Source: a virus
Taxonomy: Duplodnaviria > Caudoviricetes
IMG/VR virus record: IMGVR_UViG_3300033067_000584
Coordinates: 1-28,635 of that record
Length of the DNA: 28,635 bases
Reading direction: 5' to 3' (one strand)
The translations under genes were made by a program, and so were the position numbers. The stretch's first letter is position 1, and each line of letters starts with the position of its first letter. Below the pieces are notes generated by a model. That model was not told where the DNA came from. It ran no database searches and saw nothing but the letters and a program-made list of their open reading frames with translations. This document shows positions 3,561 to 28,635 of the stretch, in pieces.

Positions 3561-4948
3561 TCCGCCATCCCCTCGATGATCGAGAACGGCGCGTTTGCGG
3601 AACAGTCCACGCGCCACACTCGGTCGCGGCCGCACCCGAGCTGCGTCCACTCCACGCGCGGCAGGTACTCTCCCGTCAAGCCGATCGAGCGGGACACAGG
3701 ATTGCCCCACGTCATGCCGCCATTGTCGCTCCAGCTCAATTCGGCAGGGACCGATGTGATGGAAGACCCGGCGCCGCCGGTCACACAGTCAAGCGTGAAC
3801 CGTCGAAAGTAGATCCGGTCCCGGCTGGGCGACACATCGTTCGGAGAGATGCGCGAACGCTTGATCGGGTCTTCCCCGAACAGGTTGAACGTCGGATCCA
3901 TGCGGTACACCACCCCGGAGTCACAGCCGACGAGGTGATACCCAAACGCAAAGGCGTGATAGTTCGCCCGGTGCACAGCAAATTGCCCCAAAGCGTCCAG
4001 ATCGCAGCGCTCGTGCCACGCTTGGCTGGCGATCTCATAGCACCACGTCGAAGTAATGCCGGGCGCGTTGACGCACCAAAATGTCTGCCCATTGGACTGG
4101 TACACATAGGCCACCGCCGACGACAGGTCGGTGCTGGCCTGGAGGGCCTGCTCCACTGCGAGCGTGCTGATCCGCGCGGCCTGGTAGCCCATCGACCTGT
4201 ACACAAGGCCCGACCCGTTCGCGTCGCGGCCAATCCAGATCAATGCGTTGTCCACCTGACGCAACGAATGCGTCGCGACGCACCCTACATCAAGCATTGC
4301 GGCCGAGTTGCGAGACAGCGGGAAGTCCGCGGCCCCGGAGTCAAACCACACCTCGGTCGTCTTCTCTCCGACAAACCACACTTCGCGGTGATTGACCGCA
4401 TGCGACACGATGGTGTCCGGGGACGCTTCCGCTCGGGCAAAGTCCAGCGAATCGAGGTTTGTCGCGTCGTCGATCGCCGAGATGTAGAACACATCCGACC
4501 CCGGCTGCGCGAAGATGAAATATCCGTCCAGATACGCGACCCGATCAGACCCAAGCCAGTCGGCGTCCGTGATGGCTCCGAAAGCGTTGGTAGCCAGGGT
4601 CAGGACGTAGCCGTTGGCACCATCCACCACCACCAGCTGCGTGCGCCCCCAAGCAAAATCCACCGGGCCGCTGCTGGACGACAGCACGCCGCGCGCCGTT
4701 TTAACGCCGGCCGAGTTCAACTCGTACAGGGTGTTTCCAGCGACCACGAAGCAACGCCCGGCAGCCTCGAACATGCCCCGCACCGCGGCCCCCATCGCAG
4801 CGAACTGCACGAGTCCTGGGACACTCTGCAAGATGAACGGCGCCTTTGACGGCGTCTCCATCCCGACCAAGAACAGGTTGACCGATCTCTGCACGCTCGC
4901 CTTGCGGGTGGCGAGTTGGTAGCTGGGACCGACGAAGGGAAGCATCAC
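3557..4948 (-). CDS. P22 gp10-like packaged-DNA stabilisation protein (tail hub)
   Basis: 463 aa; motifs PFVGPSY, V.YLDGYFIF, AEASPD, TTEVW, WSDNGGMTW; synteny after the gp4-like gene. Confidence 0.85.
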   Translation of the reverse strand: MMLPFVGPSYQLATRKASVQRSVNLFLVGMETPSKAPFILQSVPGLVQFAAMGAAVRGMFEAAGRCFVVAGNTLYELNSAGVKTARGVLSSSSGPVDFAWGRTQLVVVDGANGYVLTLATNAFGAITDADWLGSDRVAYLDGYFIFAQPGSDVFYISAIDDATNLDSLDFARAEASPDTIVSHAVNHREVWFVGEKTTEVWFDSGAADFPLSRNSAAMLDVGCVATHSLRQVDNALIWIGRDANGSGLVYRSMGYQAARISTLAVEQALQASTDLSSAVAYVYQSNGQTFWCVNAPGITSTWCYEIASQAWHERCDLDALGQFAVHRANYHAFAFGYHLVGCDSGVVYRMDPTFNLFGEDPIKRSRISPNDVSPSRDRIYFRRFTLDCVTGGAGSSITSVPAELSWSDNGGMTWGNPVSRSIGLTGEYLPRVEWTQLGCGRDRVWRVDCSANAPFSIIEGMAE

Positions 4949-6579
4949 ACCACCTGGATGACCTTCAGCACGCCGGCCGAGTTGCGGTACTTGAACGCTC
5001 CGTCACCGGAGTCAAGGAACAGGTTGATCGAACCGGCCGCAGGTGTCGGGACGTTGGCCGCGGCCACCTGCTTGATGGTGATGAACCCTTCGGCGTTGAA
5101 GGTCCACCAGTCGGTCTGCGTGTTCTTCGTCGAACTCGAAGCGCCCTTGGGGGCGCCGCTGATGATGACGTTTCCGGCCGTCCCTGCCCCGGTGCTTTCG
5201 CCGCCGGCAATTCGGATGTCGGATCCAGCGATGTCGGTGCCCACGCCGGTCGTCGCGCTGACCGTGACGGCCCGAGGCGTGCCCACTTCGTACCCGGACC
5301 CCAGGTAGAAGCGGGCGATGTAGCCGTTCGTGTCCTGGCTGCCGATGACGCCGATGTGATCGACGCTGGGCATGTAGGTGCCGAAGCCGATGGCCAGTTG
5401 GCTGACCGCCGTCGCCGTGCTCAGGATGGTGCCGGTGCCGCCGACGCGCTCGTCGCCGCAGTAATTCCCCAGGTAGATCGAATACGAACCGCCGGTCGTC
5501 CACGCGATGCCGGCGTGCGTCCCGATTGCCGCAAACCGCGGAGCGCTGGTGGAGTTGCTGGCCGAAGATGTGCCAATCGAAATGCACTGGCTGCCGCTGG
5601 TCTTCAAGCCGCAGGCATTTGTCCCAATCACGACCGACGTTTGAATGTCCGAATTTGACGCGCCAGCCCCAATGGCGCCCGACCCGATTGCGATAGTCCC
5701 GCTGTAGTTGCCTCCGCTCAGGTCGGTGCCGATCAACCCGTTTCCGGCTTTCGCTCCAATAAAGGTCGAGTCTTTCAGGTTCGCGCCGCCGTTGACGTTC
5801 GTCTGAACGGGGCCGGCCAGATAGCCGATGATGGTGCAGGTCTCACCGATCCACCCCATGCGGACGTTGGACCCACTCGCACCGTCGCGGCGCCACATCC
5901 GGCCCGTGGTGTTGTCGTAGGGCCTGCGGTTCCCGACGAACGTGTCGGCCGTGCCATCGGTGAAGGACGTCGTCGTGTTGTCGAGGATGTCCATGCTTCC
6001 GCTGCTCGCGCGGAAATACTCGCCCGTAATGTTGGCCGCCGTGTGCCCCGCAGGCGTTGGATTGCTTGGAGTCGTCCGGTACACGCGCCGCGACACCACG
6101 CGAGGATCGCTGCTGATGGGAATCGTGAGGAACACCTGCCGCGCGCCGCCCGACACCACGACGTTCGACGAGACCGGACTGGGCGCGGTCTCGCCTCCAT
6201 CGGCAGTCAGGAAGGTATAGCAGTAGTTGTAGGTGCCAACGGCCAACTTGCCCGCGACGATGTTGGCGTCAACGGTTGCCGTCGGCGCAACGGTCGGATT
6301 GGCGACCACCAGGAAGTCGGGAATGGCGTTGAGCAGGTACGACGCCCGCACGCTGCGCGCCAGGGCCGACACCATCGTTGAGGTCAGCGTTCCATCACCC
6401 GCCCCGCAGTCCCGCAGGTTCTGCTGTTCCGCAGCCGTCAGCGGCCCGAAGTACGTCCCCGGGTTGGTTGTGTACGCGGCCCGCCCTTGAGCGACCAGCG
6501 CCGCTTCCGTCGCGTTGTCCAGATCAACGGTCGCGCCTGCCGCATAGGTTGCGTAGGCGAAGTTCAGCGTGATGGTCAT
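4945..6579 (-). CDS. fiber/adhesin-like virion protein with IGxxAG beta-roll repeats
   Basis: Start reassigned to ATG 6579 (544 aa). G/T/S-rich; Ig/FN3-like segment YNYCYTF...GET.PSP.S...RRVYRT; repeats FIGAKAG, AIGSGA, VIGTNA, SIGTSS, AIGTHAG. Confidence 0.65.
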   Translation of the reverse strand: MTITLNFAYATYAAGATVDLDNATEAALVAQGRAAYTTNPGTYFGPLTAAEQQNLRDCGAGDGTLTSTMVSALARSVRASYLLNAIPDFLVVANPTVAPTATVDANIVAGKLAVGTYNYCYTFLTADGGETAPSPVSSNVVVSGGARQVFLTIPISSDPRVVSRRVYRTTPSNPTPAGHTAANITGEYFRASSGSMDILDNTTTSFTDGTADTFVGNRRPYDNTTGRMWRRDGASGSNVRMGWIGETCTIIGYLAGPVQTNVNGGANLKDSTFIGAKAGNGLIGTDLSGGNYSGTIAIGSGAIGAGASNSDIQTSVVIGTNACGLKTSGSQCISIGTSSASNSTSAPRFAAIGTHAGIAWTTGGSYSIYLGNYCGDERVGGTGTILSTATAVSQLAIGFGTYMPSVDHIGVIGSQDTNGYIARFYLGSGYEVGTPRAVTVSATTGVGTDIAGSDIRIAGGESTGAGTAGNVIISGAPKGASSSTKNTQTDWWTFNAEGFITIKQVAAANVPTPAAGSINLFLDSGDGAFKYRNSAGVLKVIQVV

Positions 6580-6581
6580 TG

Positions 6582-7283
6582 TCAGTACCCTTGCAGGAAG
6601 CCGGCAAGGCCGGTGGGTGCGCCGATCAGCGCAGGGTCGAACTCGCTCACGGTCGGCTGCCAGTTGCCACGCTTGATGTCGGCGAACGAATCCCGCGCTG
6701 CTTGAAGCAATGCAGGGGACGGCTCGCGCCCGTACTCCGGGCAGAGTTCGACGGCGAGGTTTGCGCGGAAGGCGCGCATGTAGCCGGGAGGTGCGGTGAT
6801 GGTCGTCGCGACCGACGGCACCGTGGCGATGAGACGGTCGACGCTCAGGGTGAGCGTGTTCGCCACCGAGGGCACCGGCCACAACGTCATCTTCCCCAGC
6901 GGGTAGTCGTTGACGTACAGGCAGTACCGAACGATCGGCTGCGAAAGCGTCTTCAGCGTGATCAGGTTGTACTCGTCCTGATTGATCAGGTCGATCCTGA
7001 ACGTCACGCCTTGGTAGGTCTGGTACAGGCTGTTGATCTGCACCGGGCGATCAACGGCGAAATCGCCGCCGGAGCCGATGGTGTAGACAGACTGCCCGGG
7101 GATCAGCGTCACGTCCTCGTTGGACGTGGCCCACAGCGCGAGGCTGTCGAGGTTCCACCCCTGCAGCATCTCGTTGAACGTGTCCAGCGCGCCAGTCGCC
7201 TGCTCGGACGACGGCGTCTGCCCCTCGCCCAGGATGTTGGCGAGCTTGAGCGACCTTGTGATGAGGTCGAGTGCTGTGGTCAT
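6582..7283 (-). CDS. P22 gp4-like head-tail adaptor
   Basis: 233 aa; MTTALDLITRSLK...GEGQTP...ALD.FNEML..W, LWPVP, PPGY.RAFR.NLAVELCPEYG motifs. Confidence 0.8.
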   Translation of the reverse strand: MTTALDLITRSLKLANILGEGQTPSSEQATGALDTFNEMLQGWNLDSLALWATSNEDVTLIPGQSVYTIGSGGDFAVDRPVQINSLYQTYQGVTFRIDLINQDEYNLITLKTLSQPIVRYCLYVNDYPLGKMTLWPVPSVANTLTLSVDRLIATVPSVATTITAPPGYMRAFRANLAVELCPEYGREPSPALLQAARDSFADIKRGNWQPTVSEFDPALIGAPTGLAGFLQGY

Positions 7284-7294
7284 GCGGCCCCCAG

Positions 7295-7324
7295 AAAAGA
7301 GGGCGAGCCCCGAAAGGCCCGCCC
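7295..7324 (-). terminator. intrinsic terminator
   Basis: Minus strand GGGCGGGCCT-TTCG-GGGCTCGCCC followed by TCTTTT, just after the stop of 7332..8057. Confidence 0.7.
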
Positions 7325-7331
7325 GTGCCGC

Positions 7332-8057
7332 TTACTGGTACAGCCAGCCGATCGGGCCGACGTCCGCGGTGAACGTCGTCGGCGCGGTGATCGACGCCGG
7401 CAGCGTGCCGAACGTGCCGGCGGTGCTGTCGGTCATCCAGTTGCCTCCGTCCACCGCCTTGATGGTGCGCAGCGTCGCGGTCGTGCCGTTCTGCTGGTAG
7501 GCGATGAAGTACCGGCCCGGCAGCAGGGTGACGGGAGTCGCCGTGCCGGCCGGGTTGACGAACGCGCGGTTCTGCATCGTGTTGCCCGAACCGACCACGA
7601 CGCCGGCCAGCGCCGAGTACGTCACCAGCGCGCCAGCCGAGTCGTACAGGGCGATCAGCCCGTTGTCGGTGCCGCCCGTCGTGCCGGTCAGCACGCCGAT
7701 GCCGGTCCACGTCGCCAGGTGCGGAACGAAGATCTCGCTGCGGTAGATCGTACCGGCGACGAGGGTCTTGTTCGTGCCGGCCGACGCGAACGCCGTCAGT
7801 ACGAAGTTCGGCAGGATGCGCGGTCCCTGCGGGGTCGTCGGCACCGTGATGCCGCCAGACACCTGGAACGACACGTTGCCGCCTTGCGTCACCTGCCCCA
7901 GCGGGGTGTCCGTCAGGTAGGTGTTGGACTGCGACGGGAAGCCCGTTGCGGCGGTGCCGTAGCCCTGGGCGATCAGCGCGGCCTCGGTGGACGAGTCGGC
8001 GATCAGGATTGCGCCGACGGCGTTGGAGCCGTAGGCACGAGTCAGAAGGACAGCCAT
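7332..8057 (-). CDS. putative capsid decoration protein
   Basis: 241 aa directly after the coat gene and before a terminator; T/G/A-rich, predicted beta structure. Confidence 0.55.
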   Translation of the reverse strand: MAVLLTRAYGSNAVGAILIADSSTEAALIAQGYGTAATGFPSQSNTYLTDTPLGQVTQGGNVSFQVSGGITVPTTPQGPRILPNFVLTAFASAGTNKTLVAGTIYRSEIFVPHLATWTGIGVLTGTTGGTDNGLIALYDSAGALVTYSALAGVVVGSGNTMQNRAFVNPAGTATPVTLLPGRYFIAYQQNGTTATLRTIKAVDGGNWMTDSTAGTFGTLPASITAPTTFTADVGPIGWLYQ

Positions 8058-8069
8058 GATGTTCTCCGA

Positions 8070-9275
8070 TCAGACGTTGTAGATCTTGACCGCCAGTTCC
8101 GGGTAGGTCGCAGCCCAGCCGAACACCACGTCGAAGCGGAAGATCGAGTTGTCGTTCACGCCGTCGTAGAACTGCACGACGCGCATGTTCAGGCCCTTGT
8201 AGGAAGCCATCGACGAGTCGATGACGCCCTTCGCCGGGGTCCAGATCGGCACGCAGGCCAGCGTGAAGGCGTCCTTGTGGTACGCCACGTTCACGCCGTA
8301 GGACGTGCTGGCCGCGCCGCGGATCGTGAAGGCCGAGCCCGACGTGGGCGAAGCCGACACGTTCTGGAACGCGCCCGAGGTCACGATGGCCGGGCTGATC
8401 GGGATGGAAGTCCCGTTCTGCGCCACGTCAGCCGTGACCACGAAGTCCATCAGCACGCCGGTCGATTGCCGCGACTGCGGGTTCACCGCAAAGCAGCCCG
8501 GCAGGTTGATCACCGTGCCCTTGGTCAGCGTGCCGCCGCCGATGGCGTTGACCGTCACCGTGGAACCGGTCTGGTTCGCACCGTTGACGTTCGACGCCGT
8601 CGCCGCGCCGTTGGCGTGGGTGTAGATGTTCTGGTCCAGCGCGAAGTTCAGGCCCAGAGAGTCCACCACCAGACCCGACCCGTACTGGCGGTTCAACTGC
8701 GGCTGCGCGTTGAACAGACCCGACAGACCGGACACCAGGCCACCGTTCAAGGCGGGACCGGCGACCAGTTGCCGCATCTTGTCGCGCGGCGCGGCCATCT
8801 CGTCCAGGCGCCTGTTGGCGTTGGTCATGATCTGCACCGCGCTGATGGTCGACGTCGGCAGGGCTCCGGTGTCGTTCACCAGGTTGAAGGTGTTCTGCCA
8901 CGCCGTATGCAGGCCCTGACGGTCGATTTCGTTCGCGATCGTCGCCATCGCGGCCTGGAGCTTCTGCTCCATGCTTTGCAGGCTCAGGGTGCGCTCGATC
9001 GACAGGAACGACATGTCCGTACCGCCCTGCGACAGGGTCAGCGCAACCGTCGATTCCGTGGTGCTCTGCGGCACCGACACGCGGCCCGCGCGGTAGGTGT
9101 AGCGCGGCGGCTTCTTGATGTTGATGGTGGTGCCGGGGCTGTAGCCGCGGGCCTGGTTGCCCGTGAACTCTTCCTCCCAGTCACGATTCACGCCGGACGC
9201 GAAGCCCAGCATGTTCTCCAGAACGGCGAGACCTTCCTTCGCCAGGATCGAACAGGTAGCCAGTGAGTTGGCCAT
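8070..9275 (-). CDS. major capsid protein, P22 gp5 coat family
   Basis: 401 aa; MANSL...LEN.L, G.TINIKKPPRY, AYHKDAFTLA, RFDVVFGW motifs; follows the scaffold gene. Confidence 0.92.
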   Translation of the reverse strand: MANSLATCSILAKEGLAVLENMLGFASGVNRDWEEEFTGNQARGYSPGTTINIKKPPRYTYRAGRVSVPQSTTESTVALTLSQGGTDMSFLSIERTLSLQSMEQKLQAAMATIANEIDRQGLHTAWQNTFNLVNDTGALPTSTISAVQIMTNANRRLDEMAAPRDKMRQLVAGPALNGGLVSGLSGLFNAQPQLNRQYGSGLVVDSLGLNFALDQNIYTHANGAATASNVNGANQTGSTVTVNAIGGGTLTKGTVINLPGCFAVNPQSRQSTGVLMDFVVTADVAQNGTSIPISPAIVTSGAFQNVSASPTSGSAFTIRGAASTSYGVNVAYHKDAFTLACVPIWTPAKGVIDSSMASYKGLNMRVVQFYDGVNDNSIFRFDVVFGWAATYPELAVKIYNV

Positions 9276-9292
9276 GATTTGCCTCTGAAACG

Positions 9293-9313
9293 AAAAAGCC
9301 GCCCGAAGGCGGC
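9293..9313 (-). terminator. intrinsic terminator-like hairpin between scaffold and coat genes
   Basis: Minus strand GCCGCC-TTCG-GGCGGC-TTTTT. Confidence 0.7.
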
Positions 9314-9337
9314 CCGTTTGACGATGAGGTCAGCGAA

Positions 9338-10096
9338 TCAACGTGCCCAGCGCGCGCCCTGCGCTTTTCGCGCAGCGACGTATTCCTCCATCGACATCGA
9401 ACTGAGGTCGGTCTTCCCGCTTCGGTTCGCCGCGATGGGCTTTGCTGGTTCCGGTGCCTTGCTGACCGGCTTGGGCGTCTTGGCCGACATCTGCGCTTCG
9501 ATGCGCCCGATGCGACGGCCCAGTGCTGCCGGTGAAAGTCCTTGCAGGTCAGCAGCCAGGTCCGGGTTCTTCCCCAGGTAGTGCAGCAATCCCGCAGGGT
9601 CTTCCGCGTCGAGTACCGCCTCACCGATGGCCGTCGGGCGACCGCGCTGGTCGAAGAGCGGGCCCGCTTCTTCCGCAACGGTCCTCAAGGACTCGCGGAA
9701 CTCGCCGGCAAACCGCGCCTCGCCATCCTTGGCGACGCTGTTGGACTTCTCGGTGACGCGCTCGACGGTCGCGATCTCGCGTGCGAGGGCGACGGGGTCG
9801 ATCTGCTGCTGCTGCTCAGGCTGCCCGCTTGCTCGGGCTTCCAGTGCCGCCAGCCTTTGCGCAAGCTGCTCTTTCTCGGCGCGCTCGCGGTACAGGTCGG
9901 CGGTTCGCTTGTCGATTCGGCGCTGCATCGCGCGGCGTGCCTTGTCGGCGTCGTCCTCGTGGGACTCGGCCTTCGGTTCCGCTTGATCAGGTGCCGCTTC
10001 GGCGTCCGGGGTCACGACTTCCGGGGCGGTTTGCGTGGGCTCAGGAGCGTTTAACGTCTGCTCGGGGTCGACGGTTTCAGGGTTCGTCATGGTCAT
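9338..10096 (-). CDS. scaffolding protein
   Basis: Start at 10096 or 10090 (MTMTNPE). Acidic P/E-rich N-terminus, coiled coil QRRIDK, LLHYLGKNP and C-terminal MSMEEYVAAR; lies between portal and coat. Confidence 0.85.
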   Translation of the reverse strand: MTMTNPETVDPEQTLNAPEPTQTAPEVVTPDAEAAPDQAEPKAESHEDDADKARRAMQRRIDKRTADLYRERAEKEQLAQRLAALEARASGQPEQQQQIDPVALAREIATVERVTEKSNSVAKDGEARFAGEFRESLRTVAEEAGPLFDQRGRPTAIGEAVLDAEDPAGLLHYLGKNPDLAADLQGLSPAALGRRIGRIEAQMSAKTPKPVSKAPEPAKPIAANRSGKTDLSSMSMEEYVAARKAQGARWAR

Positions 10097-10127
10097 GCCG
10101 CTAACCCGGCAAGCGGTTGTTGAGGAA

Positions 10128-20008: not shown

Positions 20009-20047
20009 ATAGCGGGGCCTATTGACAGGTCCGATAGCGCGGCCTAT
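20009..20047. promoter_or_regulatory. OL-like operator pair
   Basis: ATAGCGGGGCCTAT (20009-20022, identical to 19531-19544) and ATAGCGCGGCCTAT (20034-20047). Confidence 0.82.
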
Positions 20048-20050
20048 AGT
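20022..20050 (+). promoter_or_regulatory. pL-like promoter
   Basis: TTGACA (20022-20027), 17-nt spacer, TATAGT (20045-20050), overlapped by both operators. Confidence 0.85.
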
Positions 20051-20928: not shown

Positions 20929-21270
20929 ATGGACACCCTGGACGAGATCCGCAGCGCCGAGTACATCGAGCGCAACCCCGAGTCGAACGCCGCGCAGGCC
21001 GTCCGCGAAGCGGCGCACGCCTACAGCTTCGGCGTGTTCTTGAGCGAGTTCGAGCGCGGCAATGACAAGATCGTCGAGACCCCGCAGTACAGCCGCGAGC
21101 GCTCCACGATTCAAGAAGTCGCCGAGTGCGACATGGACATCGGCCCGGTGCTGGACCTGATCCGCGCCGCGTCGAAGTGCAACCACGCCACACTCAGGCT
21201 GCAGGCTCAGGCCATTGTCGCCACGCTGGCCCGGCAGTACGCCGACGACGTGCAGGACGCGACGCAATGA
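20929..21270 (+). CDS. hypothetical protein (113 aa)
   Basis: GGAG RBS in the repeat; ATGA overlap with the next gene. Confidence 0.6.
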   Translation: MDTLDEIRSAEYIERNPESNAAQAVREAAHAYSFGVFLSEFERGNDKIVETPQYSRERSTIQEVAECDMDIGPVLDLIRAASKCNHATLRLQAQAIVATLARQYADDVQDATQ

Positions 21271-21836
21271 AAGCGTGGCACTTTGTGGGTGACACCCTGC
21301 GCGACGGCCGCCCTGTTCCGAAGGACGGTGAGCTGTTGCGCTTCGACGGCAAGCCTATCTTGTGCGAGCAAGGTCTGCATGCTTCTCTGGAGCCGTGGGG
21401 GGCGCTCCAGTACGCCCCGGGAGAAACACTGTGCTTGGTGGAGTGCGGCGGTCAGATCGTCCACGGACTTGACAAGTTCGTCTGTACCGAGCGGACGATC
21501 ATCGTTCGCATGGATGCGGGCCCGCTGTTGCGGCACTTTGCGCGGCAGCAGGCGTTGTCGGTGGTCCATTTGTGGGAGCCGCCGCAGGTCGTTCTTGATT
21601 TCATCATGGGTGACGATGCCGCGAGGGCTGCCGCGTGGGCTGCCGCGAGCAATGCCGCGTGGGTTGCCGCGAGGGCTGCCGCGAGCAATGCCGCGTGGGC
21701 TGCCGCGAGCAATGCCGCGTGGGCTGCCGCGAGGGCTGCCGCGAGCAATGCCGCGAGCAATGCCGCGTGGGCTGCCGCGAGGCAAGACTTCAATGCTCTC
21801 GTCCTCGACTCTTTCGCCGACTGGTTGGAGGATTGA
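21267..21836 (+). CDS. phage protein with LC..GLHAS motif and Ala/Trp tetrapeptide repeat
   Basis: ATG 21267 (189 aa); MKAWHF...LCEQGLHAS...ALQYAPG; AARA/AAWA/AASN repeats. Confidence 0.7.
   Translation: MKAWHFVGDTLRDGRPVPKDGELLRFDGKPILCEQGLHASLEPWGALQYAPGETLCLVECGGQIVHGLDKFVCTERTIIVRMDAGPLLRHFARQQALSVVHLWEPPQVVLDFIMGDDAARAAAWAAASNAAWVAARAAASNAAWAAASNAAWAAARAAASNAASNAAWAAARQDFNALVLDSFADWLED
21618..21785 (+). repeat. 14 x 12-bp coding tandem repeat GCCGCG-N6
   Basis: Units GCCGCGAGGGCT, GCCGCGTGGGCT and GCCGCGAGCAAT in mixed order, plus two variants. Confidence 0.9.
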
Positions 21837-22023: not shown

Positions 22024-22265
22024 TGAACCTCAACGACACACCCAGCAGCGGCCCTCTGTACGCGCACGACTTCGAGCCGTGGCACCTGCCGCACATGTCT
22101 CAAGCGCTGGACAACCCGCCGGCGCCGGCCGAAGCCTGCACCGAGATCGGCGTGGACGACCAGGCGCCGGCCACGTTCTCCAACCTGATCTGGGTCGGCG
22201 CCGGCTGCCTGATCGGCCTGGCTTGCTTCTCCGCGCTGTGCGGCTACATCGTCGCACGCATCTGA
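22023..22265 (+). CDS. small membrane protein (80 aa)
   Basis: TGATG coupling to the previous gene; C-terminal hydrophobic helix. Confidence 0.6.
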   Translation: MNLNDTPSSGPLYAHDFEPWHLPHMSQALDNPPAPAEACTEIGVDDQAPATFSNLIWVGAGCLIGLACFSALCGYIVARI

Positions 22266-22391: not shown

Positions 22392-22496
22392 ATGCAAGAC
22401 TTTGTCGCTGTCTACCGCCTTTACCGCCGCGTGCACTCGCGCCGGTACGCACTGCAATCCGCCTGGCGCATCGTCGTGCGCGGGATCCCATTCTGA
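22392..22496 (+). CDS. small basic peptide (34 aa)
   Basis: MQDFVAVYRLYRRVHSRRYALQSAWRIVVRGIPF; its stop overlaps the RBS (TGAGGA) of the Erf gene. Confidence 0.5.
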   Translation: MQDFVAVYRLYRRVHSRRYALQSAWRIVVRGIPF

Positions 22497-22503
22497 GGAC
22501 GAC

Positions 22504-23079
22504 ATGGACACCAAGCAAGTATCTGCCGCTTTCGTCAAGGCACAAAAGGCATTCGGACCTGCGCTGAAGAGTGCGACCAATCCGCACTTCCGCTCAAAGT
22601 ACGCGGACCTATCGGCTTGTGTCGAAGCGGTCATCGATGCCCTGAACAACAACGGCATCGCACTGATGCAGCGGAACATCGCCTGCGATACGGGTGTCTG
22701 CGTCGAGACCGTGCTGATCCACGAATCAGGCGAGATGCTGTCCAGTGGACCGCTTCACGTCCCAGCTCAGAAGATCGACGCGCAGGGCTACGGCAGCGCT
22801 TTAACGTATGCCCGCAGGTACAGCTTGATGGCTGCGTGTGGCATCGCTCCCGAGGATGACGACGGCAATGCGGCCATGAAGCGCAATAAGGTCCGCGACG
22901 AATGGCTGGCCGGCCGTAAGACCGCAATCATGTCTGCGTCGAATGTAGGAGAACTGAAGAAGATCGTCTCCGACGCCATCGAGTCGGCAACGAACGAAGA
23001 CGACGGCCGCGCCGTCGATCAGATCAACGCATGGGCCGAGGAAAAGAAGTCCTCTGCCAAGACCAAGGAGCACGCATGA
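22504..23079 (+). CDS. erf: Erf-family ssDNA annealing recombinase
   Basis: ATG 22504; NPHFRSKYADL, T.LIHESGE, QGYGSALTYARRYSL, EDDDGN. Confidence 0.9.
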   Translation: MDTKQVSAAFVKAQKAFGPALKSATNPHFRSKYADLSACVEAVIDALNNNGIALMQRNIACDTGVCVETVLIHESGEMLSSGPLHVPAQKIDAQGYGSALTYARRYSLMAACGIAPEDDDGNAAMKRNKVRDEWLAGRKTAIMSASNVGELKKIVSDAIESATNEDDGRAVDQINAWAEEKKSSAKTKEHA

Positions 23080-23570
23080 CAGCCCTCTATGTTCTTGTGA
23101 ACGAGTACCGCGCCGCAGCGGAACAACTCGCAAATATCGAACTGGACGAACAGACGGTCGCAGATACGCTCGAAGGACTGTCCGGTGAACTTGAAGTCAA
23201 GGCGCAGCAGGTTGCCTTCATGGTTAGGAACATGGAAGTGACCGCTGACGCAATCGCGCAGTTCATCAAGGATCAGTCGGCCAGGGCCAAGGCTATCCAG
23301 CACCGGGCAGATGGTCTCCGCTCGTACCTGCACAGGTGCATGGAAGAAGCGGGGATCGAGAAGATCGAAGGCCCGGGAATCTCGTTGAGTTTCCGCAAGT
23401 CCAGTGCTGTCGCCATCGATGAACCCGGGCTGATCCCTGTGCAGTTCATGCGGACCCCTGAACCGCCGCCGCCAGCACCGGACAAGAAGGCGATTGCAGA
23501 TGCCATCAAGGCCGGGGTCGAAGTTCCGGGCGCCCACATCGAGCATCGTCGCTCGTTGCAGATCAAGTGA
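23076..23570 (+). CDS. siphovirus Gp157-family protein
   Basis: ATG 23076; LY...DTLE.L...K, coiled coil, PDKKAI..AIK.G.EVPGA. Confidence 0.85.
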   Translation: MTALYVLVNEYRAAAEQLANIELDEQTVADTLEGLSGELEVKAQQVAFMVRNMEVTADAIAQFIKDQSARAKAIQHRADGLRSYLHRCMEEAGIEKIEGPGISLSFRKSSAVAIDEPGLIPVQFMRTPEPPPPAPDKKAIADAIKAGVEVPGAHIEHRRSLQIK

Positions 23571-23890
23571 AGTTCCCGAAGTCGCCTCCTGTTCGCAGCG
23601 AGTCCTATCGCCGATGGGTGGCGACGCTTCCCTGCGCGTGCTGCGGCATCGTCGGATTCAGCCAGGCGGCGCATCCGAATAGCGGCAAGGGCGTGGCGAT
23701 GAAGACAAGCGACCTTCTGTGCTTCCCTCTGTGCTCCATGCGCCCGGGGCATCAGGGTTGCCACGCGATGCATGACCTCTGCGTGGACATGACGCGAGAC
23801 GGCCGGCGACTCGCTGAACAGAGGTACATCGCTCAGACGCAGGACGCTGCGGTCAAGGCTGGGCGCAAGGAGATCGTGTGCACCAACTGA
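23567..23890 (+). CDS. DUF968/Ref-like Zn-binding HNH-type protein
   Basis: RSESYRRWVATLPCACCG...AAH...K.SD...PLC...CH..HD. Confidence 0.7.
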   Translation: MKFPKSPPVRSESYRRWVATLPCACCGIVGFSQAAHPNSGKGVAMKTSDLLCFPLCSMRPGHQGCHAMHDLCVDMTRDGRRLAEQRYIAQTQDAAVKAGRKEIVCTN

Positions 23891-24264
23891 CCCTCTGGAA
23901 CGCGCAGCAAGGGCACAGCACGCTGCTGCAACTGTGGCAGTGGATCAAGCCGCATCTGATCGCAGGACGTCGCATCCAGATCGTGGCGCGAGAAGCGACG
24001 AGGTCATCGGAGCAAAACGCCAAGCTGCACGCGATGATCTCGGACATCGCACGCACCCGCGAGTGGGCCGGCAAGCGGCGCGACATCGAAACGTGGAAGC
24101 GCCTGCTGACAGCGGCGTGGCTCAGGGCGCGTGGCGAGTCCGTGGAACTGCTTCCGGCGCTGGACGGTCACGGGATCGATGTGGTGTTCAGGCCGACGTC
24201 CTCGCTGACTGTCGCGGAATGCTCGGAACTGATCGACTTCATCGAAGCATGGGAGGCATCGTGA
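23878..24264 (+). CDS. ninB: NinB (Orf) recombination protein
   Basis: RSSEQNAKLHAMISDIAR..W.G...WKRL, TS.LTV.ECSELIDFIEAW. Confidence 0.88.
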   Translation: MHQLTLWNAQQGHSTLLQLWQWIKPHLIAGRRIQIVAREATRSSEQNAKLHAMISDIARTREWAGKRRDIETWKRLLTAAWLRARGESVELLPALDGHGIDVVFRPTSSLTVAECSELIDFIEAWEAS

Positions 24265-25025: not shown

Positions 25026-25270
25026 CAACCTGCCACCGCTGCGGACTGCCGCAATTCGACGGCCCAGCCGGCTACGCTGGGCCGCAGTGCCGGTGTTGGT
25101 TGATTGACCAGCACCGACCTTCTGCCTACAAGCCCATGCCGCCAGTCGGTGGCTGCCAGCCCGCGCAACCACTCACAGAGTCCGACATCCGTCGGATCAT
25201 CCGCGAGGAAGTATCCGCGTGGCGCGAGGAGTTCAAGAAGTGGCAGGAAGTGCTGGAGAAGAAGCCATGA
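25022..25270 (+). CDS. hypothetical protein (82 aa)
   Basis: AAGGAG RBS; ATGA overlaps at both ends. Confidence 0.6.
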   Translation: MTTCHRCGLPQFDGPAGYAGPQCRCWLIDQHRPSAYKPMPPVGGCQPAQPLTESDIRRIIREEVSAWREEFKKWQEVLEKKP

Positions 25271-25377
25271 CTGACGCCGGTTTAATGCTCGCGCTCAGTA
25301 TCTATCTGTACTCAACCGGACACTGGATCGGCGGCACGGTTGCACTCTACCTGTATAGACGCCGTATCAAGGAGTAA
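25267..25377 (+). CDS. small hydrophobic peptide (36 aa)
   Basis: MTDAGLMLALSIYLYSTGHWIGGTVALYLYRRRIKE; exactly fills the gap and carries the next gene's RBS. Confidence 0.5.
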   Translation: MTDAGLMLALSIYLYSTGHWIGGTVALYLYRRRIKE

Positions 25378-25380
25378 ACA

Positions 25381-25728
25381 ATGACCTCTGACCGCGAACT
25401 ACTGGAACTCGCCGCGAAGGCGGCGGGGATCACTTTCATTAAGTGGGTTGAAGATGTGCGGGCGTGGCTCTGCGAAACAAACGATGGCACGCCGCGCTAT
25501 TTCTGGAACCCGTTGGACTACGACGGCGACGCGCTGCGGCTGGCGGTGGCGCTGAACATCGACCTGATGCACGACACCGGCGTTGGCGGCCCGGGTCAAA
25601 GCGTGACGTTCCCGCTCGAAGGCGACTACGAAGCGTTGACTGAGCACCATGCGGAAGGCGACAAGCAGTCCGCCACCCGCCGCGCCATCGTCCGCGCAGC
25701 CGCTGAGATCGGGCGGGCGACGGCATGA
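25381..25728 (+). CDS. conserved phage protein (115 aa)
   Basis: DRELLELAAKAAG, WNPL..DGDALRLAV.L and ATRRAIVRAAAEIG motifs; AAGGAG RBS. Confidence 0.75.
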   Translation: MTSDRELLELAAKAAGITFIKWVEDVRAWLCETNDGTPRYFWNPLDYDGDALRLAVALNIDLMHDTGVGGPGQSVTFPLEGDYEALTEHHAEGDKQSATRRAIVRAAAEIGRATA

Positions 25729-25734
25729 GCGAGT

Positions 25735-25794
25735 GGAGAACGCTGCCGGTAACCGGCCGCCGTCAGGCGGTCCCGGTTGACCGGCTTGTTAGGC
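25735..25794 (-). repeat. attC site 1 (60 bp)
   Basis: Minus strand: GCCTAAC AAGCC GGTCAACC GGGACCGCC TGAC GGCGGCC GGTTACC GGCAGC GTTCTCC. Confidence 0.85.
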
Positions 25795-25819
25795 GCGTTT
25801 CGGTGTTACACAAAAGCGC

Positions 25820-25848
25820 TTGCATGATTGCCATTGCGGTATTACATT
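25820..25848 (+). promoter_or_regulatory. cassette-internal promoter
   Basis: TTGCAT, 17-nt spacer, TACATT in an AT-rich patch; GT(G/A)TTACA repeats at 25803 and 25839. Confidence 0.6.
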
Positions 25849-25892
25849 AACACCACTGCAACACAACGCGCAGCAATCAACCGGAGAAAACC

Positions 25893-26198
25893 ATGACCGC
25901 CAATACTGTCACCACCCTGCTGACTGCCAAGGGCTTCGGCCCCCGGCTTACGTTCGGCGGCTTCGCCGCCGCCGTCTGGCTGGCCGAGGCGGTCACCCAG
26001 ACCGTCAGCTCGCCGATCCGGCGGGCACAATTTGTCGCCGCCGCCGCAGAAGACCTCGCACGCCTTGACTACCAGCCTTTCGAGTGGCTGGAAGACGAGG
26101 CCAAGGGCCTCGCTGAGGTGGCCGAGGCCCAGAGGCCGACGCCGTGCGGTAGCACGGAGCTTTGGGGCAGCTTGCTCCAAAGGATGGGGCCGGCGTAA
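25893..26198 (+). CDS. cassette A gene 1, hypothetical (101 aa)
   Basis: GGAG RBS; TAATG coupling to the next gene. Confidence 0.65.
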   Translation: MTANTVTTLLTAKGFGPRLTFGGFAAAVWLAEAVTQTVSSPIRRAQFVAAAAEDLARLDYQPFEWLEDEAKGLAEVAEAQRPTPCGSTELWGSLLQRMGPA

Positions 26199-26359
26199 TG
26201 CCGGCCGGCAAGAGGCTTGGCCGCCCGGCCCTGCCGCCCGGCGAGAAGCTAGTGGTGGTGCCGGTGCGGCTAACCAAGGAGCAAAAAGCCAAGTTGCAGC
26301 GCATCGGCGTGCAGCGGCTGCGCGAGTGGCTTGACCGTGTGCGCGAGCCAAGCGCCTAA
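26198..26359 (+). CDS. cassette A gene 2, RHH/BrnA-like DNA-binding protein (53 aa)
   Basis: GRPALPPGEKLVVVPVRLTKEQKAKLQRIG...LREWLD; stop is the TAA of GCCTAAC. Confidence 0.65.
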   Translation: MPAGKRLGRPALPPGEKLVVVPVRLTKEQKAKLQRIGVQRLREWLDRVREPSA

Positions 26360-26421
26360 CGCTTGAGCTAAGGCGCAGGCCCGGTACTCCGGGACTGTCG
26401 CCCTTGAGCGAAGTGTTAGGC
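26354..26421 (-). repeat. attC site 2 (68 bp)
   Basis: Minus strand: GCCTAAC ACTTC GCTCAAGG GCGACAGTCCCGG AGTA CCGGGCCTGCG CCTTAGC TCAAGC GTTAGGC. Confidence 0.92.
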
Positions 26422-26448
26422 ATCAGTGGCGAACGAAGGGAAAGAAGC

Positions 26449-26859
26449 ATGCGAACAGCGATGAGGCCGCGCTACTACTGCGACCACTGCAACAAGGGTA
26501 ACGGATCGCCCAGCGCCATGCGCCGCCATGAGCGCGGCTGCACGCTGAACCCGCAGCGCGTGTGCGGCATGTGCAAGATGCTGGCCGACGAAGGCGGGCC
26601 AGAGCCGGCGCCGCCGCGCGATGAGTTGGTGCGGATCATGGACGCCGAAGGCTTCGCGGCCATGTGCAAGGCGGCCGAACACTGCCCGGCCTGCATCCTG
26701 GCCGCGCTGCGAACCAAGAACTTCAAGGGCGACGCGGAGAGCCCGCCCGGTGTGCTTGGCCCGGAGGATGGGCGTGAGTCGTGGAGTTACAAGCAAGCAA
26801 AGCAGGCATGGTGGGACGCCTGGAATAGCAGCGCGTATGAGCGCGAGCGGCCTTACTGA
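26449..26859 (+). CDS. cassette B gene, Cys/His-rich Zn-finger protein (136 aa)
   Basis: ATG 26449; YYCDHC...RHE..C..NP.R.C.MC...CPACILAALR. Confidence 0.7.
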   Translation: MRTAMRPRYYCDHCNKGNGSPSAMRRHERGCTLNPQRVCGMCKMLADEGGPEPAPPRDELVRIMDAEGFAAMCKAAEHCPACILAALRTKNFKGDAESPPGVLGPEDGRESWSYKQAKQAWWDAWNSSAYERERPY

Positions 26860-26860
26860 T

Positions 26861-26926
26861 GCCTAACGCTGCCGGTAAGGCGCCGGCCGCGCCAGCGGAC
26901 GGTCGCCCTTGACCGGCTTGTTAGGC
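26861..26926 (-). repeat. attC site 3 (66 bp)
   Basis: Minus strand: GCCTAAC AAGCC GGTCAAGG GCGACCGTCCGC TGGC GCGGCCGGCG CCTTACC GGCAGC GTTAGGC. Confidence 0.92.
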
Positions 26927-26972
26927 CCTGGCCCCGAAGCGAGATAGTGCAACCGTACTAGGACTAAACAAC

Positions 26973-27368
26973 GTGGATAAGCAAACCGACCTGATTTCGA
27001 GGCTGCAAGACGAGGCCGACTTGTGCCGCAACGACGGCGCAAGCGACATCGCGGCGCTGCTGGACGAGGCGGTGGCAGCACTTCAAGCCCCACGGCCGGA
27101 AGTGGCCGGCGATGGCTCCGAGGCCATGCAACTGTCGTGGGTGCCGCTGAACCGGCGCAACCTTGACTGGCACGCCCACGCCACCGTGCAACTGCGCGCG
27201 ATGCACGTTGCCCTGAGCGCAGCACAGAAGACGCCCCGCGACCCGCTGGAGATTGAAGAACTGTGGGACGAGGCGCACGAACTGCTGGAACAAGGCGGAC
27301 AGCACGACCCCGAAGTGCACGAGTTGTTCGCGCGCCTGATTGAGCGCGCGCATGGGATTGGAGTCTGA
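26973..27368 (+). CDS. cassette C gene 1, phage-type hypothetical protein (131 aa)
   Basis: AGGA RBS with GTG start; LLDEAVAAL and FARLIERAHGIG phage motifs. Confidence 0.65.
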   Translation: MDKQTDLISRLQDEADLCRNDGASDIAALLDEAVAALQAPRPEVAGDGSEAMQLSWVPLNRRNLDWHAHATVQLRAMHVALSAAQKTPRDPLEIEELWDEAHELLEQGGQHDPEVHELFARLIERAHGIGV

Positions 27369-27370
27369 CG

Positions 27371-27694
27371 ATGGCTGACGGAAACATCACGGTCGAGGTG
27401 AGCACCCAGGCAGCGCAGGCCGAGCTGGAGCGGCTGCGCGCCGAGAACTCGGCCCTGAAGCGCGACCTGCAGTACGCCCGGGACGGGCTGACGAATGGGC
27501 GCACCAGGATGCGCGAAGACAACGAGCGGTTGCGGGCGGCGCTGCAGTGGATTGATGGAGCTACTGCCGCGACTCCTGGGCTGACAGACGCAGAGCTTGG
27601 ACGCGCTATGGCTGCGATTGGCAAGAAGGCCCGCGATGCTCTTGGGCCTAACGTTCGAGCTGAACCGGACCCAACAGCGCGAGGAAATACATGA
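27371..27694 (+). CDS. cassette C gene 2, coiled-coil protein (107 aa)
   Basis: GGAG RBS; ELERLRAEN, NERLRAAL; reads on into attC4. Confidence 0.65.
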   Translation: MADGNITVEVSTQAAQAELERLRAENSALKRDLQYARDGLTNGRTRMREDNERLRAALQWIDGATAATPGLTDAELGRAMAAIGKKARDALGPNVRAEPDPTARGNT

Positions 27695-27765
27695 GCACCA
27701 CCGAAGCAAACGAAAACCACGAACGCGGCCCGCTGTTGGGGCTCGGTTCGAGCGAGGGGTTGGGC
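27646..27765 (-). repeat. attC site 4 (120 bp, long loop containing an RBS and ATG)
   Basis: Minus strand: GCCCAAC CCCTC GCTCGAAC CGAGCCCCAACAGCG...CGCTGTTGGGTCCG GTTCAGC TCGAAC GTTAGGC. Confidence 0.9.
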
Positions 27766-28170
27766 GCTGGCGCCGAAGCGCGCTACTGCTACAGCACCGA
27801 TGAGGAAGAGTTCTACGGCGACTTCGACACCCGCGAGGACGCGCTGGCCGAGGCGACGGCAGAACTTGAAGGCCGCGATGAACCGGGAGAGACGCGAAAG
27901 GTCTGGACCGGCGTGCAGAAGCCTGCGATGTACTTCCTGCGCAAGAGCACCGAACACCTGGGCCGCGACTTCGCCGAGCGCATTGACGAATGGCTGGCCG
28001 ACAACATCGCGGCCGAAGAAGAGATTGTTGAAGTCAAGGACCACGCGGCGTTAGGCGCTGCGCTGCTGGACGCGCTGGAGCGGCACGCGACGTTCAACCG
28101 CTGGGCGGTGCACCAGGTGCAGGAACATGAAGCCATCGTGCCCGGCGAACCTGAAGCGCCCAACGCTTAG
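27691..28170 (+). CDS. cassette D gene, acidic phage-type protein (159 aa)
   Basis: GAGG RBS and ATG lie inside attC4; YCYSTDEEEFYGDFDTREDALAEA motif. Confidence 0.7.
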   Translation: MSTTEANENHERGPLLGLGSSEGLGAGAEARYCYSTDEEEFYGDFDTREDALAEATAELEGRDEPGETRKVWTGVQKPAMYFLRKSTEHLGRDFAERIDEWLADNIAAEEEIVEVKDHAALGAALLDALERHATFNRWAVHQVQEHEAIVPGEPEAPNA

Positions 28171-28224
28171 GTGTGGGGCCTGCGCGGCTTTTCGCGCAGG
28201 TCCCACACGACCGACGTGTTCTGC
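28158..28224 (-). repeat. attC site 5 (67 bp)
   Basis: Minus strand: GCAGAAC ACGTC GGTCGTGTGGGA CCTGCGCG AAAAGC CGCGCAGG CCCCACACC TAAGC GTTGGGC. Confidence 0.82.
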
Positions 28225-28241
28225 CTTTTTCGGAGAGAGAT

Positions 28242-28580
28242 ATGGAATGGATTGATGTGGCAACGCTGACGGTGCGGCGCGAGTTCCGGCCTGGCACACG
28301 CAAGAAGTTTGACGGCGAAATTGAGCCGTGTTTCAACCTGCTGCGGGACTGCGGTATCGGATGTACCTGCGAGGCATCGACTTGGTTCCGCGATGGCGTG
28401 CCGACCATCGACGCGGCAGAGAGTAAATGCCTCTGCTTCAACGACCGCAAGAAACAAGGTATCTCCGAAATTAAGGGGACGGGCCGCGCCATCAAGGAAG
28501 GCCCTGACGAATGGATCTACGAGGTTCAGGCGAAGCTCGTGGAAGTAAGGCAGAACGTTGCAATTGAGCCGCGCCGGTAG
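28242..28580 (+). CDS. cassette E gene, Cys-containing hypothetical protein (112 aa)
   Basis: GGAG RBS with ATG 28242; ends inside attC6. Confidence 0.65.
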   Translation: MEWIDVATLTVRREFRPGTRKKFDGEIEPCFNLLRDCGIGCTCEASTWFRDGVPTIDAAESKCLCFNDRKKQGISEIKGTGRAIKEGPDEWIYEVQAKLVEVRQNVAIEPRR

Positions 28581-28606
28581 GCGTCGGCTCGAATTGCGTG
28601 TTGGGC
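28550..28606 (-). repeat. attC site 6 (57 bp)
   Basis: Minus strand: GCCCAAC ACGCA ATTCGAGC CGACGCC TACC GGCGCG GCTCAAT TGCAAC GTTCTGC. Confidence 0.9.
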
Positions 28607-28635
28607 GTCTGTATCCGAAGCGAGAAGGAGTAAGC

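Follow-up and report, generated by a model that had tools for sequence, protein, structure and literature searches.

An integron-type cassette array in the early region of a P22-like phage, with genes predicted to lie opposite to the strand used by bacterial cassettes

Introduction

The gene cassettes of class 1 and chromosomal integrons (PMC2727003, PMC5027507; here also locus L004) are the closest described relatives of the element analyzed here, an array of six attC-type sites in IMG/VR virus record IMGVR_UViG_3300033067_000584 (Duplodnaviria; Caudoviricetes). The stretch under study, hereafter the window, is the whole viral record of 28,635 nucleotides (nt), which is ~75% complete; comparison loci carry L numbers. 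Like integron attC sites, those of the window have AAC/GTT cores, an L-box stem with a bulged G, a second bulge, an unpaired spacer, a uniform orientation and 9–13 nt of complementarity across each cassette, and two of them (S5 and S6) resemble known attC sites. Unlike in integron cassettes, the genes of the phage array are predicted to lie on the bottom strand, each hairpin preceding its own gene, with start codons in hairpin loops, stop codons possibly taken from the neighbour, and expression that a phage promoter at the far end would drive, rather than a Pc promoter at the integron attachment site attI.

Sites of this kind have been described in phages before. The available text of Qi et al. 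2023 (PMC9892861) reports 17 phage clusters of attC sites with no integron integrase (CALINs), and recombination of five phage sites by the class 1 integrase IntI1; these clusters resemble the present array in that phage attC clusters often occur without intI, together with DNA methyltransferases and genes of unknown function. That text, figures apart, makes no mention of genes antisense to attC, nor of a phage IntI group wired to excisionase and integrase genes (xis-int). It was the sole paper on attC in phages found by our literature search, which covered subscription journals poorly; the available text of PMC8876359 and PMC8946536 holds nothing on reversed arrays, and 10.64898/2026.09.14.751636 and PMC13366799 hold nothing on the subject. 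IntI insertion outside integrons, at short sites with the consensus GWT, is described in the available text on attG insertions and single attC sites lacking integrases (SALINs; Loot et al., bioRxiv 10.1101/2022.09.11.507474). The first site of the window likewise sits at a GTT, but SALINs are normal cassettes found singly in bacterial chromosomes, whereas here a multi-cassette array lies in a phage. In the reverse integrons of Treponema, as far as the available text of PMC7691350 goes, intI and the cassette genes point in the same direction, as they do in the relatives of the window phage; there, however, intI is flipped with normal cassettes downstream, while in the phage relatives intI is in place and the genes, upstream of intI, are flipped. 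The window array is not of the Treponema type, as it is the cassettes themselves that are reversed.

Results

Six sites with an unpaired G on the plus strand

The sites are as follows.

25735..25794, minus strand (canonical top strand): S1, attC-type site of 60 nt at the distal array end; predicted cut 25740/25741
26354..26421, minus strand: S2, attC-type site of 68 nt, from motifs, folding and alignment
26861..26926, minus strand: S3, attC-type site of 66 nt, from motifs, folding and alignment
27646..27765, minus strand: S4, attC-type site of 120 nt, whose loop contains the downstream gene's ribosome-binding site and its ATG (27691)
28158..28224, minus strand: S5, attC-type site of 67 nt, with an inner hairpin common to attC sites of canonical bacterial cassettes
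28550..28606, minus strand: S6, attC-type site of 57 nt, with its plus strand laid out like the bottom strand of aadA7 (compared by eye with the oligonucleotide in Table S3 of PMC9892861)

On the plus strand each site reads AAC, a 5–6-nt spacer, a stem, its 3' arm, a 5-nt spacer and GTT, and in all six the AAC and GTT triplets lie in the terminal 7-nt boxes of a long imperfect palindrome. A structure-aware detector returned six sites in 25200–28635, where 200 dinucleotide shuffles averaged 0.06 sites and never gave more than 1; an early loose hairpin scan had been dropped for its dozens of chance matches. The detector missed real sites elsewhere (L001 2609–2667, L002, L018 and most of those in phage ctTUS972), so the site counts given for loci are lower bounds.

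Strand assignment follows from the bulges. The 3' arm of the plus strand carries an unpaired G four bases into the stem in 6/6 sites, and both the L-box stem with its extrahelical G opposite the cleaved 5'-AAC arm and the unpaired central spacer are present. When nine sites from the window, L001, L003 and L022 were aligned and folded (RNAalifold), the invariant G remained unpaired and two-sided changes were seen in 7 of 10 pairs. According to the available text of Nivina 2016 (PMC5027507), the recombining bottom strand carries its bulges on the arm opposite the cleaved 5'-AAC. By this convention, which the available text of PMC2727003 shares, the bulged G marks the plus strand as the putative recombining bottom strand, which places the predicted cut at each site's left end, at AA|C of the plus strand. 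The cut would thus be at G|TT of the minus strand, making all genes antisense to the usual polarity of cassettes. L004, a class 1 integron, served as control: the detector found five sites there, whose bottom strand is the one that does not carry the annotated genes. In the window array, genes lie on the plus strand in all five segments, and no top-strand gene stands upstream of its own attC. We therefore read the plus strand as the likely bottom strand and the units as probably built hairpin first, gene second. An earlier reading made from the window's letters alone (the sequence-only reading) had seen here the pattern left by circular cassettes integrating at G|TT; this was borne out as a mark of integrons, but the cut is now placed on the minus strand (plus-strand AA|C). 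A model with a right-end cut and a recombining minus strand proved wrong, and the circular-form energies computed for it were not used.

Complementary ends across cassettes

The five end pairs singled out by the sequence-only reading are all perfect complements at the coordinates it gave: GTTAGGC at 25788, 26415 and 26920 with GCCTAAC at 26354, 26861 and 27646; GTTGGGC (27759) with GCCCAAC (28158); and GTTCTGC (28218) with GCAGAAC (28550). Its remark that S5 and S6 are mismatched internally holds (each matches at 2/4 variable core bases), but S1 (1/4) and S4 (3/4) are mismatched too, and S2 and S3, which match within the site at 4/4 variable core bases, are unable to separate the two pairings. 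The 7-nt core alone has only two informative pairs and offers modest evidence, because three of the five pairs share the commonest core; 12 of 720 permutations of the right ends also yield 5/5 (p 0.017). Complementarity across cassettes extends, however, to 9, 13, 9, 10 and 10 nt, and positions 8–10 are complementary at 13/15 places across cassettes versus 4/18 within sites. Over 47 viral cassettes, 82% of positions 8–10 are complementary versus 38% with shuffled partners. This extension past the core is a stronger sign than the 7-nt match. Pairing over 9–11 nt in most cassettes had already been stated (available text of Bouvier 2009, PMC2727003), and cross-cassette end matching is a known, ordinary mark of integron cassettes. 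As this matching has long been known, the interest of the locus lies in its polarity and phage setting.

The left end of S1 differs. Its four leftmost bases come from the phage target and have no match within the array, and S1 sits at a GTT (minus strand) inside the start of a phage gene (ATG 25725, MSEW...), which its left end disrupts; such an interruption is expected of insertion at a GTT secondary site. A GTTCTCC at 22175 was considered as partner of this end and rejected, as it lies within an open reading frame (ORF), without a hairpin.

Cassettes and their genes

Cut at AA|C, the array divides into the following units.

25741..26359, plus strand: cassette 1 (619 nt), with the S1 body, an AT-rich leader, ORF 25893–26198 and ORF 26198–26359
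26360..26866, plus strand: cassette 2 (507 nt), with the S2 body and ORF 26449–26859 (136 amino acids (aa), Cys-rich, no family)
26867..27651, plus strand: cassette 3 (785 nt), with the S3 body, ORF 26973–27368 (131 aa) and ORF 27371–27694 (107 aa)
27652..28163, plus strand: cassette 4 (512 nt), with the S4 body and ORF 27691–28170 (159 aa; stop from S5)
28164..28555, plus strand: cassette 5 (392 nt), with the S5 body and ORF 28242–28580 (112 aa; stop from S6)
28556..28635, plus strand: start of cassette 6, with the S6 body and a leader, cut by the contig end

The unit 28164–28555, named in the sequence-only reading as an example of a circle, is the same unit as derived here from AA|C boundaries. 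In three genes (27371, 27691, 28242) the frame runs on through AA|C, read as Asn, and the following hairpin supplies the stop; ORF 27371–27694 crosses the cassette-3 junction into S4 in this way, and homologs of the crossing genes terminate differently next to other neighbours (comparison with L001 and L002). In cassette 1, ORF 25893–26198 encodes 101 aa of no family, and ORF 26198–26359 encodes 53 aa, its stop TAA falling within GCCTAAC. The 53-aa protein is possibly a ribbon-helix-helix protein; its ESM Atlas matches of at least 0.9 are unnamed clusters, and the named ones, below 0.85, serve as leads only. The leader of this cassette holds a promoter-like match (7/12 consensus bases, read by eye) that the promoter scanner did not call. 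Pfam returned no family for the cassette proteins. ORF 27691–28170 matches phrog_1672 weakly, and ORF 28242–28580 has 29 homologs and no family.

Several features recur in and around the sites. A leader motif, CCGAAGCG, stands ~8–12 nt past the right end of many sites (26927–26945, 27766–27785 and 28607–28625 in the window, and in many loci). Long sites (~95–126 nt) hold a ribosome-binding site and ATG in the loop (window 27646–27765, L001 3000–3119, L003 9095–9214), and the same loop-start layout is seen in long sites of L006, L010, L020 and L024. In long sites of this kind, the hairpin arm encodes N-termini such as ...GLSEGLG or VAPLERQVRP. In L102, near 420–440, the cassette-3 leader follows a collapsed site (GCCTAAC, 4 nt, GTTAGGC), i.e., a hairpin body lost by deletion. 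Two-gene units resembling cassette 1 (~4100–4620 of the reverse complement of L013; L051, L095–L101) are cassettes in some cases and plain phage genes in others.

The same units beside other neighbours

The cassette-4 gene was found in two unrelated phage backbones, L001 and L002, where the S4 layout (a long hairpin whose loop holds the start codon) recurs ahead of the homologous gene and no hairpin follows the closing AA|C. Among nine loci homologous to the cassette-2 gene, it is a cassette in L022 and L024 and a plain phage gene in six, the last being a short partial match. Its ends co-vary, with GTTAGGC/GCCTAAC in the window and GTTATGC/GCATAAC in L022 and L024; in L024 it is the last gene of the array and closes at AA|C with no hairpin behind. 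Homology blocks of cassette 3 begin at 26861–26863 in seven loci and stop at 27652–27654 in four, and L122 carries a site 97% identical to S3 before the same leader. One contig of sequencing run X4, which is from a different study than the best-matching run, equals 27649–28166 with no difference and has other letters on both sides, and loose contig ends fall at 27645, 27647, 28157, 28158, 28162 and 28554. Run X1 is possibly the sample of the window and was not counted as independent. Compared by blastn with isolated phages and plasmids, the array had short matches only, among them one of S5 to a class 1 integron.

Taken with the attC anatomy, the compensatory changes and the lack of a U-tract at the hairpins, these core-exact swaps support the claim of the sequence-only reading that the units were probably assembled by site-specific recombination and are not terminators. 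The further prediction that the next site begins with GCCCAAC is unreadable in the window, where the contig ends at 28635, but it came true in two phages: L013 and L032 have leaders near-identical to the cassette-6 leader, and GACGCCCAAC closes them after a further 497 and 357 nt, respectively. An exact 20-mer of the cassette-6 leader matched no viral contig.

Integron integrases and attI-like sites in relatives

The window has six attC-type sites and no intI on the contig, which stops 29 nt past S6, its right flank lying beyond the contig end on the side where relatives carry intI and an attI-like site. In L022, a viral contig of 54.9 kb retrieved by way of cassette 2, a gene for IntI directly follows the array (TIGR02249, 412.7 bits; cut-off 265). 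This protein is 56% identical to IntI1 and keeps the R, K, HxxR, H and Y residues and the IntI insert; its gene is on the cassette-gene strand, and after it come an excisionase-like gene and a phage integrase, a trio present in 5/24 loci tested. Queries with L022 IntI gave 48 viral loci. In their arrays, which stand upstream of intI, the bottom strand coincides with the strand of intI, as in the normal geometry. In 16/20 distinct viral intI loci with a detected last site, this site is complementary, for 7 nt or more, to the junction that precedes intI. The junction is followed by a conserved stretch ending in GTAAC at 27 nt, compared with 28 nt in attI1 of L004. A Pc promoter at attI could not read the cassettes, because their genes point towards the attI side; the candidate promoter lies instead at 20022–20050.

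In an IntI tree of 111 rows (a quick search without bootstrap), 24 viral rows and one contig from a Rubrivivax bin form a group with a support of 94 (Shimodaira–Hasegawa-like approximate likelihood ratio test, SH-aLRT), and other viral rows fall elsewhere. The viral label requires 7 changes, so a single origin of all phage IntI is not claimed. Arrays without intI (L024 8413, L018 5330, L003 10038, reverse complement of L013 ~6135) end in AA|C followed by T-rich stretches resembling the start of attI1, which are possible attI remnants. In G001, a complete genome (36.7 kb) with no IntI, ERF, Gp157, DUF968 and NinB precede the array in the order of the window, and an excisionase-like gene and an integrase follow it. 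Given such intI-less arrays, G001 included, the window phage most likely relies on an integrase supplied in trans; that its own intI stands beyond the contig end is a minor, if real, possibility.

The S5 hairpin points to a possible source of such an integrase. The inner hairpin of S5 matches attC sites in a class 1 integron, and an S5-type hairpin was the commonest match among 401 genomes of the order that holds the Rubrivivax bin, 95 of which had any match (the tally includes G392, which is unpublished and on which no claim rests). Among 13 bacterial sites with this hairpin, the gene is canonical in 11 and ambiguous in 2. By sequence, then, one hairpin family appears with opposite gene polarity in phage and host, and its presence in canonical bacterial cassettes makes a host-type IntI a plausible partner.

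How widely the reversed polarity occurs

For every distinct segment bounded by two detected sites, we assigned the gene strand from amino-acid log-odds, using a model that had been trained on twelve genes of the window's backbone. Of 70 segments, which came from 28 of the viral loci L001–L003 and L005–L077, 66 were reversed, 2 canonical and 2 ambiguous; metagenome loci picked by the 27371 protein gave 86 reversed, 3 canonical and 2 ambiguous segments out of 91. Bacterial genome loci picked by the IntI query (80 loci, 14 with segments) yielded 34 canonical, 4 reversed and 3 ambiguous segments out of 41, and viral loci retrieved via the same query 35 reversed, 2 canonical and 2 ambiguous out of 39. 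PHROGs profiles matched 22/70 bottom-strand ORFs versus 0/68 best other-strand ORFs (the latter being shorter), the matches including six DNA methyltransferases, two Lar-like proteins, one PAPS reductase-like protein and one phrog_5086. In the bacterial set, 7/41 top-strand ORFs matched PHROGs, three of them toxin-antitoxin or regulator families.

Among previously described phages, ctTUS972 (MW202573; Qi et al. 2023), which is P22-like with its array right after gp157, is reversed by our test, P12002L_attC1 (Qi et al. 2023) lies on the coding strand, and TJE1 is canonical; for the polarity of P12002L and ctTUS972, sites were located by motif and eye. A reversed three-cassette array with two DNA methyltransferases lies in L003 (7997–10045) between a Mor-like gene and lambda-like phage head genes. 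It begins at a stop codon outside an early-operon setting, so reversed arrays are not limited to the early operon. In L306 (KX853513, virus Rctr41k; 4680–10101), an IntI-like gene has canonical-polarity cassettes downstream, i.e., the Treponema-type layout, and the bulged base is C.

The array in its phage

The window is a fragment of a P22-like temperate phage, with terminase, P22 portal, P22 coat and stabilisation protein genes on the minus strand, followed by helicase, cro and cI and then by a rightward early region with ERF, Gp157, DUF968 and NinB. The array occupies the far end of this early region or operon and is truncated by the contig end at 28635. Backbone features that bear on it are the following.

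20022..20050, plus strand: sigma-70-like promoter candidate (11/12 consensus bases), beside cI/cro and facing the array; a likely candidate for the early-operon promoter, judged from the match
22402..24264, plus strand: recombination genes ERF, Gp157, DUF968 and NinB, upstream of the array, from family profile matches
25381..25728, plus strand: phrog_5086 gene (PHROGs match), a backbone gene immediately outside S1

The phrog_5086 family occurs as a cassette in L032 and L137. An Rfam scan of the window gave no match. Elsewhere in the backbone, tandem near-repeats at 21620–21780 of a DUF7666 gene (frame 21126–21836) encode AAWAAA(R/S) runs, and a small hydrophobic ORF (MTDAGLML...) at 25268–25380, too short for the 70-aa ORF limit, overlaps the 25022 gene at its stop.

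Discussion

We consider it highly probable that the window carries an integron-type array in a P22-like early operon, with genes opposite to the strand used by bacterial cassettes, likely assembled by an IntI from the host or a related phage. The attC anatomy, polarity, modular exchange and IntI genes of relatives that underlie this reading are legible in the sequences; from them we infer the activity of IntI on the sites, expression, the direction of array growth and the birth of cassettes from phage genes. IntI would cut the folded plus strand at AA|C, and the hairpin of the excised circle would close perfectly over 9–13 bp. The circle could then insert at another attC, at the right-end attI-like site or, as proposed for S1, at a GTT secondary site. 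Relatives with intI carry, in this order and on a single strand, the array, the attI-like site, intI, the excisionase-like gene and the phage integrase. The geometry of intI, attI and attC is normal there and the genes alone are flipped, which would make them readable from the phage early promoter. New cassettes would then join the array at the end farthest from the promoter, whereas in bacterial integrons the opposite holds.

Several observations weigh against this reading. No tyrosine recombinase (PF00589) was matched on the window contig, the record being 75% complete, and no IntI passed the cut-off in any of 10 further viral records with arrays, a single one of which is complete. The promoter at 20022–20050 is proposed solely from its consensus match. 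Because queries derived from the window selected the viral and metagenome loci, their counts do not estimate the frequency of reversed arrays, and among 80 loci picked by NinB only 2 had an array, both reversed where scorable. Cassette-2 bodies measure 68, 58 and 126 nt in three phages, the body thus not being tightly tied to the gene; detected sites before the cassette-3 leader are 47–97% identical to S3; further contig breaks fall just past the right ends of sites, at 27766–7, 28221 and 28610–1; and homology breaks at 27070, 27371, 27465 and 27532 show mosaicism within cassettes. These patterns indicate that a second exchange route is at work, and the exchange of bodies could stem from top-strand recombination, ERF annealing or repeated birth from shared hairpins. 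Excision circles were absent from the contig joints examined, which carries no weight since contigs drop rare forms.

In a rival explanation, the hairpins would be shared linkers for short-homology swaps of accessory genes by the annealing proteins ERF and Gp157 of the phage, with integrase activity historical or absent. ERF, Gp157 and NinB do stand just upstream of the array, the mosaicism lies inside cassettes and bodies are exchanged at both ends, and neither the window contig nor the complete relative G001 has an IntI. Homology swaps do not, however, predict unit ends whose complementarity co-varies between phages, nor an invariant bulged G or hairpin-less AA|C joins to unrelated DNA, and we find this explanation unlikely. 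An origin as a block of a bacterial integron, or as normal cassettes inserted backwards by top-strand recombination, has precedents in the available texts on phages with pieces of chromosomal integrons (PMC9892861) and on top-strand insertion (PMC5027507), and S5 does belong to a bacterial attC family. Either route would leave each gene on its own site's top strand, whereas here it is on the predicted bottom strand; moreover, the cargo is of phage type, partly plain phage genes, and the cassette-3 protein had no convincing match in 401 genomes from a single Burkholderiales family (four weak hits, best E 3e-4), which makes such an origin decidedly improbable.

Another phage or host tyrosine recombinase might use the hairpins in place of IntI, and phage integrases do adjoin several arrays (L005, L007, L013, L022). 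These score far below the IntI cut-off and resemble ordinary prophage integrases; the recombinase abutting the array junction is IntI where one is present, and the sites carry the features that IntI reads, leaving this a very slim prospect. That the hairpins are terminators or RNA-processing signals whose ends match by chance would agree with GC-rich stems between co-oriented genes, but it is scarcely credible: no plus-strand terminator was called on any site stem (one weak call lies at 28205–28219), genes start within or read through S4, S5 and S6, and six sites stand against at most one in shuffles, with matches that continue beyond the core.

If, as we favour, the array is of integron type with reversed genes, a broader view may be put forward tentatively, as one that we hold with less than even confidence: temperate phages may run an integron branch of their own, composed of a phage IntI group in the early operon and a separate, back-to-front cassette pool that arose from host-borrowed attC hairpins placed before phage early genes. 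The literature explains the strand selectivity of integrons as keeping genes readable from Pc; here, the same hairpins appear with genes on the other strand, in many phages. With reversed genes, the phage life cycle would govern cassette expression and possibly shuffling as well, with the newest cassettes farthest from the promoter, and the DNA methyltransferase and Lar-like cargo of related arrays would offer fast variation of counter-defence genes. Because the cassette-2 family and phrog_5086 occur both as plain genes and as cassettes, these arrays would, if the reading is true, be a place to watch and test cassette birth, and genes found with and without attC may give a handle on the old question of where cassettes come from.

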